Of a stretch of DNA of 48,797 nt, positions 43,797 to 48,797 are shown one piece after another (the first letter of the stretch is position 1; the number at the start of each line of letters is the position of its first letter). Source of the DNA: Minisyncoccia bacterium (GTDB taxonomy: Bacteria > Patescibacteriota > Minisyncoccia > Phycocordibacterales > UBA9973); contig JBBRTD010000004.1 of the NCBI GenBank assembly GCA_038244685.1, positions 1 through 48,797 on the forward strand, given 5' to 3'. Below the pieces are notes generated by a model. That model saw only the letters and a list, made by a program, of their open reading frames with translations, ran no database searches and was not told where the DNA came from. The translations under genes were made by a program, and so were the position numbers.

Positions 43797-43948
43797 AACG
43801 ACGAGTGTTTTATATACAGGATTCTCGCCCTACGGTCGCTGGTATTTTTCGGCCTCATAAATTCGGCAACGAAAAATCTTTCGACTCCTGTGCGCAAATG
43901 AAGAAGTTCATTTGCTATCGCTCGTAAAAATTACATGAGTAATTTTTG
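43797..43948. other. GC-enriched, hairpin-dense spacer (candidate structured RNA or divergent module) between tRNA-Val and the nucleotidyltransferase gene
   Basis: A perfect 9-bp hairpin is formed by gcaaatgaa (43893-43901) / ttcatttgc (43906-43914). A second hairpin is atttttcg (43844-43851) / cgaaaaat (43870-43877). Possible closing helices are acgag/ctcgt and cagga/tcctg. The segment tcgactcctgtgcgca (43881-43896) is an inverted near-copy of the tRNA-Val 3' end. Confidence 0.45.
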
Positions 43949-44021
43949 TGCGCGATACAGGAGTCGAACCTGTGACCTACCCCACGTCAAGGGGTCGCTC
44001 TACCAACTGAGCTAACCGCGC
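43949..44021 (-). tRNA. tRNA-Val (anticodon GAC)
   Basis: A manual cloverleaf fits GCGCGGT/ATCGCGC acceptor, GCTC/GAGC D-stem, ACCCC-TTGACGT-GGGGT anticodon arm and ACAGG-TTCGACT-CCTGT T-arm. It is 73 nt and CCA is not encoded. Confidence 0.9.
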
Positions 44022-44057
44022 AATTATATATTGATTATTTGAATACTTCCTATTTTG

Positions 44058-44144
44058 CGGAAGCGGTGAGATTTGAACTCACGATACGGTTTCCCATATG
44101 CCGCTTTTCGAGAGCGGTGCCTTCAACCACTCAGCCACGCTTCC
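44058..44144 (-). tRNA. tRNA-Ser (anticodon CGA)
   Basis: A manual fold fits GGAAGCG/CGCTTCC acceptor, CCGCT-CTCGAAA-AGCGG anticodon arm, a long variable arm, and a GTGAG-TTCAAAT-CTCAC T-arm. It is 87 nt. Confidence 0.88.
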
Positions 44145-44214
44145 GTATGTCATGAAGCCACACCTCCCTTTACCATCAGATTATACAGAATAAGCCTATA
44201 ATTATCAAGGCTTC

Positions 44215-44271
44215 ATAGGTCCAATGCTAGAGAGGTCCAGACTAGCAGAGGTACAACATAATAGAGGTCCA
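44215..44271. repeat. four 9-mers (AGAGGTCCA and variants; TGGACCTCT on the minus strand) at an exact 16-nt period
   Basis: The copies are ataggtcca at 44215, agaggtcca at 44231, agaggtaca at 44247 and agaggtcca at 44263. The 7-nt spacers are unrelated to each other. Confidence 0.8.
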
Positions 44272-44323
44272 ACCTCGAAGTAAGAGATTGTACATCTATT
44301 ACTTAATCTAATGGTTATTGATC

Positions 44324-45829
44324 CTAGTCAATCAAACTCTTCCCCGTCATAGATTCTGGCTTTTTAATACCTAAAATTTCAAAAATAGTTGGGGTGATGT
44401 CTGCAAGAGTTCCTTTGTGTAAAGTTCCAGTCATGTTCGTTAAAATAAATGGCACAGGATCTGTCGTATGAGATGTATGTCTCTCTCCTGTCTCTTGGTC
44501 AATATTTATTTCAGCATTGCCATGGTCGGCTGTTATACAAGCTGTCCCACCATTTGCATGAAGAGCTTCTAGAACTCTTCCAAGCTGTTTATCTATTTCT
44601 TCTACTCCTTCTATAATTGCTGGAACATTTGCAGTGTGTCCTACCATATCAGCATTAGCAAAATTTATAAATAAAAAGTCTGTGCCTTTTTTAATTTGTT
44701 CTATAACCTTACCAGCAATTGCTTCTGCCATCATCTTTGGAGCAAGGTCATGAGTTAGAATATCCTTACGACTTGGAACAAGTATATACTCCTCTCCTTC
44801 ATATGGTTTCTCTACACCACCATCTAAGAAATATGTTGCATGTGCAAACTTCTCAGTCTCAGTGATATGAGCTTGAGTTAGGTGAGCCAATGATAACTCT
44901 CTAGCTAGTGTTGTATCAATTTTAATTGAAGGAAAGGCAACTGAGCATTTATAGTCTGTTCCATAATCAGTCATAGTCACTAATTTAAGGTTTAGACTTC
45001 CGGAAATTTCAATAATCTTATGAGTAAGCATGCGTGCTCTATCGGCTCTAAAATTGAAAAAGAATATTCCATCGTTTTTTTCTATCAAATGCTTTTTCCC
45101 TTCCTTATCTAAACACAAAAATGGATTAATGTGTTCATCAACAACTCCATCTTTATATAAATTTTCAACGAAAGTACTAGGAAGAATATCACAAGTGTTA
45201 CCTTCTCCCTTAAAAATTATTTCTTCTACTTTTAACAATCTATCCCAATTATTATCTCTATCCATTGCATATAAACGTCCTGAAACTGAAGTGATGAATC
45301 CCACTCCTAAGTTTATAATTACTTCTTCTAATTTTTTAATATAGGCAGATGCACTCTGAGGTGGAACATCGCGCCCATCGGTAAAGACGTGGATTGCAAT
45401 TTTATTTATTCCTGCCTCTTTTGCAATTTTAAGAAAAGCGAATAAATGCTCCATATGACTATGCACTCCACCAGGAGAAAGAAGACCCATTACATGAAGA
45501 GTCGCATCATTCTTTTTTATATGGTCAAAAAGCTCCAAGAAAGCAGGATTTTTTGCGAAGTCGCCATTTAGTACTGCTTTATCAATTCTTACCAAATCTT
45601 GATCCAAAGGTCTACCCGCCCCGATTGTCATATGCCCTACTTCACTATTCCCCATTTGACCACTAGGTAGCCCTACAGCGAAAGCAGACGCATCTAATGT
45701 CGTATGTGGATACTTACTCCAAATGTTATCAAAATTAGGTTTATGGGCAGCTGCGATGGCATTATCTTTCGTATCTTCTCTATAGCCCCAACCATCAAGG
45801 ACAATCAATGCAATTTGTTTCTTATTCAT
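44324..45829 (-). CDS. gpmI: 2,3-bisphosphoglycerate-independent phosphoglycerate mutase
   Basis: It has LIVLDGWG, MGNSEVGH and ADHGNAE motifs. I start it at the ATG at 45829 (MNKKQIALIVLDGWG). Confidence 0.94.
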   Translation of the reverse strand: MNKKQIALIVLDGWGYREDTKDNAIAAAHKPNFDNIWSKYPHTTLDASAFAVGLPSGQMGNSEVGHMTIGAGRPLDQDLVRIDKAVLNGDFAKNPAFLELFDHIKKNDATLHVMGLLSPGGVHSHMEHLFAFLKIAKEAGINKIAIHVFTDGRDVPPQSASAYIKKLEEVIINLGVGFITSVSGRLYAMDRDNNWDRLLKVEEIIFKGEGNTCDILPSTFVENLYKDGVVDEHINPFLCLDKEGKKHLIEKNDGIFFFNFRADRARMLTHKIIEISGSLNLKLVTMTDYGTDYKCSVAFPSIKIDTTLARELSLAHLTQAHITETEKFAHATYFLDGGVEKPYEGEEYILVPSRKDILTHDLAPKMMAEAIAGKVIEQIKKGTDFLFINFANADMVGHTANVPAIIEGVEEIDKQLGRVLEALHANGGTACITADHGNAEINIDQETGERHTSHTTDPVPFILTNMTGTLHKGTLADITPTIFEILGIKKPESMTGKSLID

Positions 45830-45940
45830 AGGGATTATTATATCATAAAAGTTTGGCATTATTAATTTATAATATACCATTAATCTATTGATAAAATTTG
45901 TATTTTTGAATATAAATGTTATACTAACCTTGTTAATTTT

Positions 45941-46012
45941 GGCCTTATCGTCTAACGGTTAGGACATCGGCTTTTCAAGCCGGTAATCTGGGTTCAATTC
46001 CCAGTAGGGTCA
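45941..46012 (+). tRNA. tRNA-Glu (anticodon TTC)
   Basis: A manual fold fits GGCCTTA/TAGGGTC acceptor (two G-U pairs), GTCTAACGGTTAGGAC D-arm, CGGC-TTTTCAA-GCCG anticodon arm and CTGGG-TTCAATT-CCCAG T-arm. Confidence 0.88.
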
Positions 46013-46065
46013 CAAAAGCGCGAATTCAAAAAGACTGGACTTCTCCAGTCTTTTTCGCTTTTGTG
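46011..46065 (+). terminator. compound hairpin and terminator immediately 3' of tRNA-Glu
   Basis: The outer helix is cacaaaagcg (46011-46020) / cgcttttgtg (46056-46065). The inner helix is aagactgga (46031-46039) / tccagtctt (46044-46052) with a T-run. Confidence 0.75.
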
Positions 46066-46068
46066 AAA

Positions 46069-46120
46069 GCGCAGGCATAATTTTTCAGTAGAAAAATTGC
46101 CGAGCTGGGGTCGCGAACAC
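46069..46120. repeat. GC-rich structured module, subfamily 2, copy D
   Basis: The sequence is gcgcaggcataatttttcagtagaaaaattgccgagctggggtcgcgaacac. About 40 of 55 positions are identical to copy E. Confidence 0.8.
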
Positions 46121-46305
46121 TTACATATTTTATGAGTAATCGAAATAAAATATTTAGTGATTTGTGACCTCCAGTGACCTTTAATTTAATGACAAATAAG
46201 TGTATTCACGATCCCAATAGGGTCATGGAAAAATTATATTAAAAAAACCATATTAATCTCTTAATATGGTTTTTTAAACATTAAATACAGAACAATTTAC
46301 ACCAA

Positions 46306-46650
46306 CTACTTAAATCCAAGTATATTTCTTTCAGCTTGTGACAATTTAGATAAAGCTTTTTCTCTTAATTTCACTACTTCTTCTTCGTCATTTAAAATAG
46401 TTATAGTACCACCATCGGTAATTAGATAATAATCGACTTCATTTGTAAAAACTAATACTCCAGAAGTTTTTGTAGTGCTTGCATCCACCTGACTATCAGC
46501 AAAAGCTGAAGCAATGTTAGGATCCTTCAAATATCCAACCACACTTGATTTTCTTCCATCAAAATCAGTATGGTAAACTTCGTACATCATGACAAAGGTG
46601 AATGATGATAAATTTTGTCCAATCAAGGACTTAAGTTCTTTTTTATCCAT
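46306..46650 (-). CDS. hypothetical protein
   Basis: 114-aa ORF with clean boundaries. I recognise no motif. Confidence 0.5.
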   Translation of the reverse strand: MDKKELKSLIGQNLSSFTFVMMYEVYHTDFDGRKSSVVGYLKDPNIASAFADSQVDASTTKTSGVLVFTNEVDYYLITDGGTITILNDEEEVVKLREKALSKLSQAERNILGFK

Positions 46651-46723
46651 AACGCTTAAATTTAAAATGTGAATTTTTTCTTTACATTACATCTAATTAG
46701 CCATTTTGTCAATCCACAGATCT

Positions 46724-46780
46724 AAATCCTCTTACCCCCGCAAAAAAGGCGACTCTAATTTTGTCGCACTTGGGTCACAT
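46724..46780 (+). repeat. cassette-boundary direct repeat X1
   Basis: The sequence is aaatcctcttacccccgcaaaaaaggcgactctaattttgtcgcacttgggtcacat. It shares both ends with X2 and X3. Confidence 0.65.
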
Positions 46781-46865
46781 AATTTTTAACACCTATTTCA
46801 TATAGGTATTTTGTAATGACCCAATAAGATATTTTTATGATTTGGAATCTGATATAATAATGCAC

Positions 46866-47384
46866 ATGATATATAAAAGAATAATAATTCTAGGAGGTAG
46901 CGGTTCCGGAAAATCTACCTTAGCGAATAGAATTAGTTTGTATACAGGTTATCCTATTCATCATCTAGATAATATACTTTTAAATTCAGATTGGTCTCAA
47001 AAAGAAAAAAGTGAATGGTTAAATATCTGTAAAAAAGAATTTCTTTCCGAAGATACTGGTGTTATAGATGGTAATTATTCGTCTGTGCTTAATGAAAGAA
47101 TAGAATGGGCAGATTTAATAATTTTTATAAACGTGCCAACTCTTCGCCATCTGTTTAATATATTTAAAAGATCACTTTTGGTTAATCTAGGATTAGAGAA
47201 AAGATATGGAATGGAAAAAGGAAGAAAAGATACAGTCGATTTAAAATTTTTTAAGTGGGTATTAAATTGGAATAGAGGTCATAAAAAGGAAATGCTAAAC
47301 TTATTGGGATCAATAAAAAACAAGAGAATTATTGTAACAAATAGTCCTAGAAAGTTAAACATTGAAAAGCTACTAAATGAGTAA
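46866..47384 (+). CDS. P-loop NTPase, adenylate-kinase/topology-modulation (FlaR-like) family
   Basis: It begins MIYKRIIILGGSGSGKSTLANRIS (Walker A). I start it at the ATG at 46866. The track start at 46842 is a TTG, and an ATG at 46860 is also possible. Confidence 0.7.
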   Translation: MIYKRIIILGGSGSGKSTLANRISLYTGYPIHHLDNILLNSDWSQKEKSEWLNICKKEFLSEDTGVIDGNYSSVLNERIEWADLIIFINVPTLRHLFNIFKRSLLVNLGLEKRYGMEKGRKDTVDLKFFKWVLNWNRGHKKEMLNLLGSIKNKRIIVTNSPRKLNIEKLLNE

Positions 47385-47423
47385 GAATATAATTAGCAAA
47401 CAAAATTAGGATTATATTTCCAC

Positions 47424-47479
47424 AAATACCCTTATCTTCTCCATAATTTAATTCCTATTTTGTCGTAATTGAGTCACAT
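47424..47479 (+). repeat. cassette-boundary direct repeat X2
   Basis: The sequence is aaatacccttatcttctccataatttaattcctattttgtcgtaattgagtcacat. Its first 42 nt are 33/42 identical to X3 with no gaps. Confidence 0.75.
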
Positions 47480-47507
47480 TGACAAAACACAATATTTATA
47501 CTATAGT
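47479..47507 (+). promoter_or_regulatory. sigma-70-type promoter candidate for the 101-aa ORF
   Basis: TTGACA (47479-47484) is followed by a 17-nt spacer and then TATAGT (47502-47507). Confidence 0.55.
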
Positions 47508-47591
47508 ATAAATAAGACTGAGTTATTCAGCAACGTATTTGAAGAATCGTATGTCTTCAAGATTGCTCTTTATATTTATAAATTTACCGTT

Positions 47592-47897
47592 ATGGCAAAA
47601 AAATTACCAGAAGGCCAATTCCAGATTACTGATGGACCTTCAAAATTTGATTTAATGTCTAGCCTATTTGATGGCAAGATAGTAAAAATAACTTGTGATT
47701 TATCAGGTCAAGAGACAAAAATTAAAATTTGTCCAAAGATTGAAGTTGTATTTATTATTATTGGAATGGAAGATGGTTCTCGTGAATCATGGTTTGGAGA
47801 AGTTAATTTCTCTGATTATAATTATGAACATGGGCGTCGCAGGTTCTACTACAACACCAAACGAAGAACAGGACACATAAGAGAGCTTATAAAATAA
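47592..47897 (+). CDS. hypothetical protein
   Basis: I start this 101-aa ORF at the ATG at 47592 (MAKKLPEGQF...). The track's TTG start at 47469 would place the promoter candidate inside the gene. A terminator follows. Confidence 0.5.
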   Translation: MAKKLPEGQFQITDGPSKFDLMSSLFDGKIVKITCDLSGQETKIKICPKIEVVFIIIGMEDGSRESWFGEVNFSDYNYEHGRRRFYYNTKRRTGHIRELIK

Positions 47898-47917
47898 CTC
47901 CTTATAAAGTATCAATT

Positions 47918-47947
47918 GAAGCATTCAGAAATGGATGCTTCTTTTTT
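47918..47947 (+). terminator. intrinsic terminator
   Basis: The stem gaagcat (47918-47924) pairs with atgcttc (47935-47941) and is followed by tttttt. Confidence 0.75.
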
Positions 47948-47958
47948 ATTTAACTCCC

Positions 47959-48000
47959 AAATCCCCTTATCTCCCCTACAATCTAGGTCCAATTTTGTCG
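47959..48000 (+). repeat. cassette-boundary direct repeat X3
   Basis: The sequence is aaatccccttatctcccctacaatctaggtccaattttgtcg. Confidence 0.75.
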
Positions 48001-48010
48001 AACTTTTTAG

Positions 48011-48068
48011 AAGTACATACATAATTTTTCGGTAGAAAAATCACCGAGCTGAAATCGCGAGTACTTAC
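48011..48068. repeat. GC-rich structured module, subfamily 2, copy E
   Basis: The sequence is aagtacatacataatttttcggtagaaaaatcaccgagctgaaatcgcgagtacttac. The closing helix is aagtac/gtactt. Confidence 0.8.
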
Positions 48069-48151
48069 GCAAAAGCTGAGTATCTAAAAAAAATTATTAA
48101 TATGTAACATATATAATAACGTTACATGCCGTGCTATATCATCATATTATT

Positions 48152-48186
48152 AAAAAAGTGCCAACATCTTTTTGATGCCAGCACTT
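48152..48186 (-). terminator. intrinsic terminator after the 170-aa ORF
   Basis: The helices are aagtgc/gcactt and catc/gatg. The A-run on the plus strand gives a U-tract on the minus strand. Confidence 0.65.
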
Positions 48187-48208
48187 CAATATAAATTGAT
48201 ATTTTTCT

Positions 48209-48721
48209 TTATTCAACTACAACAAGAATATAATGACGATGGTCATAAAAAAAATCTCCGTTTACTTTATGAATGTTGAGAATACGGTCAACACCACAAA
48301 CTCCCAAACTAACTGCAATACTATCTGCACCAAATATACGATTACGATACCAAAGCGAACCAATACACAATATTTGTTCCTGATATTGAAAAAGTGGATG
48401 ACTTTTTCCAAAAGTTAATAGTTCAGCTAAATTCGCAAGTCTATTACCTTTTTTGTAAATTGACTGAATTACACGATCAAAACAATGATATGTACCAAAT
48501 TGTTCTTCAGATTTAATAATCGATGCTATTACACGAACAATGTCGTCAGTTTGCCCAAATGGTTTTATTACTGGAAAATTAGTAGAATTAATACTATTGT
48601 CTCCGTATTCATAGTGACCATCCTTTATCATTTCATCAAGAGATTTACTGTAATCAACAGTCAAATCGAATTCCATCTCTGTATTGAAAATTTTAGATTT
48701 TAATTTCTCTTCTGTTTTCAT
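48209..48721 (-). CDS. hypothetical protein
   Basis: 170-aa ORF with no recognisable motif. Confidence 0.5.
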   Translation of the reverse strand: MKTEEKLKSKIFNTEMEFDLTVDYSKSLDEMIKDGHYEYGDNSINSTNFPVIKPFGQTDDIVRVIASIIKSEEQFGTYHCFDRVIQSIYKKGNRLANLAELLTFGKSHPLFQYQEQILCIGSLWYRNRIFGADSIAVSLGVCGVDRILNIHKVNGDFFYDHRHYILVVVE

Positions 48722-48797
48722 AATATAGTTTTTAATGAGCTAAGCTCGGTTTATGTGAATTTTTCTTCACTTTACAATATATTAGTCCTTCTGGCAA

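Follow-up and report, generated by a model that had tools for sequence, protein, structure and literature searches.

The locus described here lies at one end of a 48,797-nucleotide (nt) stretch of Minisyncoccia DNA (hereafter the window), which is the entire contig C4 of an 850-kilobase (kb) assembly in 26 contigs (33% G+C, 96.6% complete). It starts at a tRNA-Glu gene and consists of small genes, mostly without known relatives, separated by direct repeats of approximately 55 nt, which we named X; the stretches between repeats are referred to as units or cassettes. The genus comprises many species with genomes of 0.4 to 1.0 Mb, typical of candidate-phyla-radiation bacteria. The tRNA-Glu gene is followed by a non-coding E module and by the inverted open reading frame (ORF) ORF114 with X1, a plus-strand P-loop gene with X2, ORF101 on the plus strand with X3, a partial E module and the inverted ORF170 with X4, and the likewise inverted ORF281 and ORF593 with X5 and X6, respectively (Table 1). 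The array contains at least six repeats, three of which are beyond the window, on contig C13. The contig break falls within the array and the locus carries on into C13, to which C4 is linked by an overlap of 141 nt (window positions 48657 to 48797 are identical to C13:1-141). An initial annotation of the window had described X1, X2 and X3 as three copies on the same strand and let the array end at X3. The three copies were found where they had been placed, whereas the end at X3 proved to be wrong, as X4 to X6 follow on the adjoining contig. Contigs assembled from the source sample confirmed the window sequence.

Table 1. Features of the tRNA-Glu array (positions in the window unless contig C13 is indicated)
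Feature	Position	Strand	Evidence and remarks
tRNA-Glu (anticodon TTC), array anchor	45941-46013	+	ARAGORN; Rfam tRNA, 63 bits
E module, non-coding	46014-46226	+	Terminator hairpin 46028-46055; repeat D1a 46060-46154; second copy of tRNA-Glu 3' end, tcccaatagggtca, 46212-46225
ORF114 cassette gene, orphan, inverted relative to repeats	46306-46650	-	Minus-strand TTGACA box 46712-46707 abuts X1
Repeat X1	46722-46779	+	R1 E = 1e-10; ends conserved, middle is a small GC hairpin, terminates in GGGTCACA
P-loop cassette body	46780-47420	+	Conserved 5' module; extended -10 TGATATAAT at 46850-46858; ORF 46869-47384
Repeat X2	47421-47478	+	R1 E = 8e-14
ORF101 cassette body	47479-47956	+	Promoter TTGACA-N17-TATAGT 47479-47507; two-hairpin leader; ORF 47592-47897; terminator 47918-47941
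Repeat X3	47957-48017	+	R1 E = 8e-12, model positions 2-50; 5' and middle blocks intact, GGGTCACA core lost
D1b, partial second E-module copy	48004-48098	+	49-nt core 48020-48068 matches 46076-46124 at 41/49
ORF170 cassette gene, inverted orphan	48209-48721	-	Closing repeat X4 just beyond window end
Repeat X4	C13:152-212		
Repeat X5	C13:1291-1348		
Repeat X6	C13:3270-3327		

The repeats were scored with R1, a sequence-only repeat model made from 20 aligned copies in three genomes, in the building of which no tRNA sequence was used. The motif ATTTTGTCG occurs three times in the window, solely at X1, X2 and X3, as compared to a mean of 0.45 in shuffled sequences, and three occurrences were reached in only one of 100 shuffles. 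X2 and X3 are 77% identical across 48 nt. The copies in the window are worn, with a foreign middle in X1 and the GGGTCACA core missing from X3, and X4 to X6 are degenerate, too. Scattered copies of ATTTTGTC or its inverse GACAAAA had also been noted in the initial annotation. One of them, at 46703-46710, overlaps the minus-strand TTGACA box upstream of ORF114, and an inverted copy assigned to X2 (47481-47487) falls in the -35 box of the ORF101 promoter (TTGACA, 47479-47484), while an inverted near-copy (46191-46197) belongs to the conserved end of the separate E module of ~210 nt. As two are thus at TTGACA boxes and one is in the E module, these copies do not belong to the recombination site.

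Copies of X were then counted using an iterated nhmmer profile over relatives and metagenomes. In addition, 61 genomes of the genus were screened for the repeat, as were 150 other genomes of the order at E values up to 1e-4. X1 to X3 are members of a family with the consensus AAATCCCCTTATATTCTCTACAATCTGATTCCAATTT-N9-TAGGGTCACA, in full AAATCCCCTTATATTCTCTACAATCTGATTCCAATTTtAACCCCCTAGGGTCACA. Among 123 non-redundant copies, conservation is confined to three blocks, at positions 1-12 (AAATCCCCTTAT), 20-36 (A.AATC.G.TTCCAATT) and 46-55 (T.GGGTCACA), and positions 37-45 are variable. The 3' 35 nt of X copy the tRNA-Glu 3' end in degenerate form, resembling its variable loop, T-arm and acceptor 3' end (AATC(C/T)GGGTTC(G/A)ATTCCC(G/A)GTAGGGTCACA), blocks 2 and 3 representing the degenerate T-arm and the acceptor 3' end. 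The box that the initial annotation had likened to the tRNA-Glu 3' end is indeed shared with it, since GGGTCACA matches that end. When these 35 nt were aligned to the 50 tRNAs of the genome, the two tRNA-Glu genes scored 15-17 and the next best 7-9, with a median of 3, and R1 matched the tRNA-Glu 3' end itself at 45984-46014 (model positions 24-58, E = 0.01). All copies have in common derived features that are not those of a tRNA, namely the 5' blocks and the TTCCAAT-plus-insert form. At positions 26-28, the GAG variant, (A/C)GAG, is restricted to arrays whose anchor is a tRNA-Glu(CTC) gene with an AGAG T-stem, and all other arrays have CTGG, CTGA or CCGA. This pattern is a hint that X may be tied to its anchor tRNA. 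The identity of X is 0.76 within loci and 0.74 between loci; a genome-specific homogenisation of X is unsupported by these values.

In total, 136 copies of X were found in 48 loci, none of which carries copies on both strands. In 21 of the 22 loci for which the upstream flank is available, the repeats are preceded by a tRNA-Glu gene (TTC or CTC) on the same strand, the exception being genome G021, in which the tRNA is inverted against gpmI. The distance from tRNA-Glu to the first X ranges from 363 to 2463 nt, with one case of 8790 nt. Between the repeats there are 82 units, of 178-2606 nt in length with a median of 724 nt; 68 of them (83%) contain a single ORF of at least 50 amino acids (aa), 11 contain two or more and 3 contain none. 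The genes show no orientation bias relative to the repeats (41 in the same direction, 38 opposite). Cassettes carry their own promoters, such as the TTGACA-N17-TATAGT directly after X2 or the extended -10 in the 5' module of the P-loop cassette. In many plus-strand cassettes a TTGACA follows the core, minus-strand cassette genes have a TTGACA box on the opposite strand just before X, and many units include a terminator.

The initial annotation had interpreted the layout beside tRNA-Glu as a cassette-like array or a site-specific insertion hotspot, and the comparison with relatives supports this view. The repeats are not limited to this genome: they were detected in 27 of the 61 genus genomes (0 to 9 copies per genome), in a few genomes of other families of the order (only 10 of the 150 other genomes), and in dozens of metagenome contigs. 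Eight copies in a row follow tRNA-Glu in G016 and 9-10 in G022. Nor is the region invariant; it extends between tRNA-Glu and gpmI-tRNA-Ser-tRNA-Val and is hypervariable. From tRNA-Glu to tRNA-Ser there is only 0.34 kb in G012, an empty site made of tRNA-Glu, 340 nt of E module, tRNA-Ser and tRNA-Val, as opposed to ~10 kb in the contig of locus L046, a complete array with tRNA-Glu, eight repeats, a few more genes, gpmI, tRNA-Ser and tRNA-Val. X3 does not head an unannotated gene either, as it is flanked by convergent genes. The second tRNA-Glu gene of the genome (CTC, C10:17713-17788) has the same 3' end as tRNA-Glu(TTC). Downstream of it, four minus-strand genes (273, 426, 71 and 362 aa) make up a block of 3.7 kb, at the far end of which stands a solo X-like copy (C10:21490-21545). 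In this genome, X copies are confined to these two tRNA-Glu loci. They were thereby distinguished from dispersed repeats, such as repetitive extragenic palindromes (REP), bacterial interspersed mosaic elements (BIME) or miniature inverted-repeat transposable elements (MITEs), as were all copies by their never occurring on both strands of a locus and by not being palindromic.

The same cassettes were found in different contexts, with breakpoints at the core; in particular, the P-loop and ORF101 cassettes of the window recur elsewhere beside different neighbours. The P-loop cassette lies behind X1 in this genome, behind an E-type core in G020, in a copy with a frameshifted gene, and directly behind the intact tRNA-Glu(CTC) 3' end in G019, where it is followed by an X. 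The intact tRNA end substitutes for X before first cassettes. The homology between the P-loop cassettes of this genome and G020 starts at the GGGTCAC core, and in the metagenome contig L041 a P-loop cassette that is near-identical at its 5' end starts ~10 nt past the X1 core. The ORF114 cassette and X1 are missing from G020 and from a contig of a peat metagenome, which fuses window position 46225, where the tRNA-like core of the E module ends, to position 46784, so that exactly ORF114 and X1 are gone. The ORF101 cassette occupies five different positions and always starts immediately after ...TCACA. It ranks third or later in this genome, G016, G022 and L034, and it is the first behind the E module at tRNA-Glu(CTC) in L031. 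A cassette for a 154-aa protein is present twice in G016. The P-loop gene of G020 (L011 3875-3344) is split by its frameshift into ORFs of 100 and 72 aa; cassettes therefore decay in place.

The P-loop ORF was predicted to encode a FlaR/adenylate-kinase-like protein, and it matched the FlaR-type 'DNA topology modulation protein' model of NCBIfam (PRK08118) with E = 1.6e-37 but below the model cut-off. ORF101, ORF114 and ORF170 had no match in Pfam, NCBIfam or PADLOC, in agreement with the earlier description of ORF101 as an orphan. In the protein collection, ORF101 has a family of 26 members, none of them named. The fold of ORF101, which was predicted with confidence (predicted local distance difference test score, pLDDT, 84.7), is small and beta-rich and had no significant match in the PDB (best E = 0.2). 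A role of the orphans in toxin-antitoxin or defence systems, which had been put forward for checking, gained no support, as PADLOC returned only weak P-loop matches and the ORF101 fold lacks a PDB match. Among 87 cassette proteins, only about 15 matched Pfam (E up to 1e-4), the remainder being orphans, a composition that resembles integron cargo. The matched cargo includes HAD and HD hydrolases, P-loop kinases (one of them zeta/CPT-like), Maf, glutamine amidotransferase, orotidine monophosphate (OMP) decarboxylase, a peptidoglycan-binding protein and pilin-like proteins. There was no recombinase or transposase among the 25 most-matched of the 29 Pfam families of these 87 proteins.

The locus is probably a cassette array that arose, and at least in the past was also reshuffled, through site-specific recombination at a site derived from tRNA-Glu, the enzyme being encoded elsewhere. 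Conservative site-specific insertion at a tRNA-derived site would produce just this anatomy: repeats in direct orientation, anchoring at the 3' end of a tRNA, a single site closing each unit, and genes in any orientation. Each unit is a self-contained expression module with its own promoter, usually one ORF in either direction, often a terminator, and a closing X. In the mechanism that we infer, circular or incoming units would recombine site-specifically at the tRNA-Glu 3' end or at a tRNA-like core already in place, either of X or at the end of an E module, and the array would then grow, shrink and reshuffle in the manner of an integron. With all sites in direct orientation, excision and insertion would be possible but inversion would not. 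Candidate enzymes would be the Xer-like tyrosine recombinase acting in trans, or a recombinase from a mobile element that is not in these assemblies. A wider reading, which we put forward tentatively and hold to be rather doubtful, is that ultra-small bacteria may have independently evolved an integron-like gene capture, in which one-gene cassettes with a ~55-nt tRNA-Glu-derived site would be inserted, excised and reshuffled at tRNA-Glu by an unlinked recombinase, most plausibly the single Xer-type enzyme of the cell or an enzyme of an unrecognised family.

The search for such an enzyme led to a single tyrosine recombinase in this genome, on contig C1 (PF00589 search). This Xer-like protein scored 237 bits with the XerD model of NCBIfam and 234 bits with that of the archaeal-type XerA, the latter above the XerA cut-off. 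It is not an IntI, as it reached 127 bits with the integron-integrase model, the cut-off of which is 265. Genomes without arrays gave no R1 match despite their Xer-like gene, and no dif-type arms (two arms of ~11 nt with a 6-nt spacer) were visible in X. The scan of viral contigs yielded no X, and a phage or plasmid carrier of X was set aside after this empty scan.

A number of results weigh against site-specific movement, or at least against its continuing in this array. No recombinase adjoins any array according to searches with PF00589 in this genome and the 61 genus genomes, with PF00239 in 12 genomes and with phmmer in the flanking loci, and none was found beyond the window edge, where the initial annotation had suggested looking for one. 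Nearly all 61 genus genomes carry the Xer-like gene, as one tyrosine recombinase per genome, irrespective of whether they have an array, and in none does it lie next to one. This genome has no serine recombinase (PF00239, searched in 12 genomes), and the large serine recombinases of relatives lie far from their arrays. With the Xer-like protein as phmmer query, no match, not even an integrase fragment, was obtained among the 887 ORFs of the flanking loci. Neither circular cassette contigs (no terminal overlaps) nor, in the assembled contigs of the source sample, which were the material examined, excision junctions of the same organism were found. X has no clear inverted arms (best complementarity 55%) and no significant single-strand hairpin, the single-strand DNA folds of eight copies having z-scores from +0.95 to -1.6 and no common stem. 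Since the middle of X1 is replaced and the core of X3 lost, this array may be inactive. Homologous cassettes in different arrays are flanked by repeats that are barely more alike than background, except for the right part of the upstream repeat (0.73 versus a background of 0.63, p about 0.02-0.06, a weak effect). This excess is a weak hint that the crossover might fall within X before position 37; judging by the clean junctions at GGGTCACA, it would be at the 3' edge of X instead. Finally, window positions 46790-47120 are near-identical to L041 (oriented 944-1549) for ~330 nt, from the 5' module into the gene, after which identity falls to roughly 85%. This mosaic suggests a recent homologous exchange between cassettes of different organisms and would show that such exchange acts on cassettes as well.

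A conversion-tract pattern of this kind is expected if cassettes are exchanged among strains by RecA-mediated homologous recombination after DNA uptake, with X, a conserved spacer, as portable homology, as in the minimal mobile elements of Neisseria, and no dedicated site-specific step. However, with only 55 nt and about 74-76% identity, copies of X would be poor RecA substrates. The likeness of X to tRNA-Glu, the start of arrays at tRNA-Glu genes, the single direction of all copies and the cassette directly against an intact tRNA end would also be left unexplained, and we regard this explanation of the arrays as quite improbable. Somewhat easier to accept, though still unlikely in our view, is that the repeats are fossil scars of larger elements targeting tRNA-Glu (phages, integrative and conjugative elements (ICEs) or tycheposon-like elements), each of which left a partial tRNA as attR and was trimmed to about one gene, with no movement of single cassettes today. 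Partial-tRNA direct repeats are the classic signature of attachment (att) sites, no integrase is encoded in cis, many copies including X1, X3 and X4-X6 are degenerate, and tandem accretion at tRNA genes is documented in streamlined Prochlorococcus (10.1101/2020.12.28.424599). Against this origin, the units are very regular in length and in their one-ORF content, and the flanking loci are devoid of integrase fragments. The derived non-tRNA features common to all copies point to one spreading repeat family and not to an independent decay of displaced tRNA ends. Moreover, one and the same single-gene cassette is met at either tRNA-Glu gene and at more than one rank, and its breakpoints coincide with the core.

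The promoters that abut X on either side, with TTGACA after the core or on the opposite strand before X, might also indicate a regulatory or structural role of X (as promoter, UP element, terminator, insulator or small RNA) and its duplication along with neighbouring genes. The orientation of X is nevertheless constant whichever way the genes point, X is located between convergent genes not only at X3 but also at repeat g of G022, and an intact tRNA end replaces it before first cassettes. In addition, X has neither a significant fold nor an Rfam match; over 45700-48797, with E values up to 5, Rfam matched only the tRNA. A regulatory origin is therefore very improbable, and for a promoter or 5'-untranslated-region repeat the convergent-gene positions and the fixed orientation rule it out, as already argued in the initial annotation for a simple promoter.

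Recombination at a tRNA-Glu-derived site, the reading that we prefer, was compared with known systems of gene capture. The arrays resemble integron arrays, both sedentary chromosomal integrons and clusters of attC sites lacking integron-integrases (CALINs), in that they consist of mostly single-ORF units of ~0.5-1 kb, each closed by a co-oriented member of one repeat family, in that their content varies between relatives with the same cassette at different ranks, and in that most of the cargo is of unknown function. In contrast to integrons, IntI is found neither beside the array nor in the flanking loci, the array starts at a tRNA gene and not at an attI beside intI, and the cassettes have their own promoters and no orientation bias, whereas integron cassettes are promoterless and co-oriented under a common promoter, Pc. 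X is not an imperfect palindrome, has no R and L boxes and no single-stranded fold, and RYYYAAC/GTTRRRY ends are absent from its consensus. The lack of a hairpin, of palindromic arms and of IntI rules out attC sites, as had been noted before. The organisation is thus integron-like without being an integron, as the tests for IntI, attC and promoterless co-oriented cassettes all fail. Literature searches turned up no integrons in these organisms and no description of such arrays.

Small modules bounded by short sites and moved by the host Xer recombinase are known as pdif modules in Acinetobacter plasmids and as integrative mobile elements exploiting Xer (IMEX). The arrays share with them the small site-bounded gene modules, and the only tyrosine recombinase here is Xer-like. 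The pdif sites, however, alternate in orientation and are dif-like (11-6-11), whereas X sites are direct in every locus, ~55 nt long and tRNA-like, with no recognisable dif-type arms. The cis-mobilisable elements (CIMEs) and integrative and mobilisable elements (IMEs) that are accreted by ICESt1/ICESt3, and mobilisable genomic islands, are att-flanked modules that lack an integrase and are mobilised in trans or in cis; they need the integrase of a resident related ICE, are kilobases long and carry many genes. Like these, the units described here are att-bounded, have no recombinase of their own and stand in tandem at one chromosomal site, but no helper element was seen here and the units contain far fewer genes.

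The tycheposons of Prochlorococcus (10.1101/2020.12.28.424599) likewise form a hypervariable region seeded at a tRNA gene of a streamlined genome, with partial tRNA copies between successive inserts, the newer of which push the older outward. They are multi-gene elements with their own tyrosine recombinase and replication genes, in contrast to the units of ~0.7 kb found here, which are an order of magnitude smaller, have one cargo gene and no integrase nearby, and are bounded by a repeat with conserved non-tRNA 5' blocks. The hallmarks of tRNA targeting are nonetheless present, namely insertion at the tRNA 3' end, partial-tRNA repeats bounding the inserts and the first cassette against an intact tRNA end; an element-encoded integrase inside the bounded units was found neither by phmmer with the Xer-like query nor among the 25 most-matched of the 29 Pfam families. 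Hypervariable regions bounded by tRNA genes also occur in other small genomes, for which the mechanism of integration was stated to be unknown (10.64898/2026.04.03.716425). In bacteria with very small genomes, a single hypervariable region is frequently found next to tRNA genes, and the region described here resolves into discrete one-gene units tagged by a 55-nt site of clear tRNA-Glu origin. The consensus and the model can serve as a signature for searches, the site offers recombination assays a defined substrate, and the units amount to a catalogue of mobile accessory genes from a lineage that is difficult to grow. Should the array be driven by a housekeeping Xer-type or unknown enzyme, it would be a second route to integron-like gene capture; if the arrays are only fossils of larger elements, they would still show tRNA-anchored islands decaying into tidy single-gene arrays.

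The E module is a structured element of ~170-340 nt, which follows tRNA-Glu or an X core and forms a family separate from X. Besides the two copies in the window, it was identified in L010 (10858-10695 and 9926-9755), L031 (7690-7889) and L017 (6457-6790). Its homologues in G012, G004, G022 and L031 follow tRNA-Glu or a repeat and end with ataagtgtaYtcacg and the tRNA 3' end, and in several genomes the module begins immediately after the GGGTCACA core. Within it lies an inverted copy of the 3' end of the local tRNA-Glu, a direct copy forms its end, and both co-vary with the local tRNA (CCCGG, CCCAG or CTCTG versions), and cassettes lie directly behind it in G020 and L031. In its behaviour the E module resembles a unit without a gene by which the attachment core is regenerated; whether as such a cassette, as a MITE whose ends are tRNA-like or as a trailer structure of the tRNA, each of these identities is possible.

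The leader of ORF101 (window 47508-47591; L009 7075-6994; L010 6190-6117; L031 7925-8000; L034 7925-8000) is more conserved than the protein. It forms two hairpins, with the stems CTGA/TCAG and TTGAAGA/TCTTCAA, one of which shows a compensatory change from A-T to G-C. No Rfam match was obtained for this leader, which may be a cis-regulatory RNA.

The tRNA-Glu locus is inversion-prone. The tRNA-Glu gene and the array are inverted relative to gpmI-tRNA-Ser-tRNA-Val in this genome (window 43948-46013) as well as in L034, G041, G066 and G064, and tRNA-Glu, array, gpmI, tRNA-Ser and tRNA-Val are all on the same strand in L046 and G004. In G021, tRNA-Glu alone is inverted and abuts the start codon of gpmI. 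Partial 5' copies of tRNA-Glu, of 46 and 22 nt, are located 140-165 nt upstream of the intact gene in G016 (L009 10075-10030) and G022 (L010 11100-11078), respectively, with structured inserts in between; the 5' half of this tRNA has therefore taken up small elements as well.

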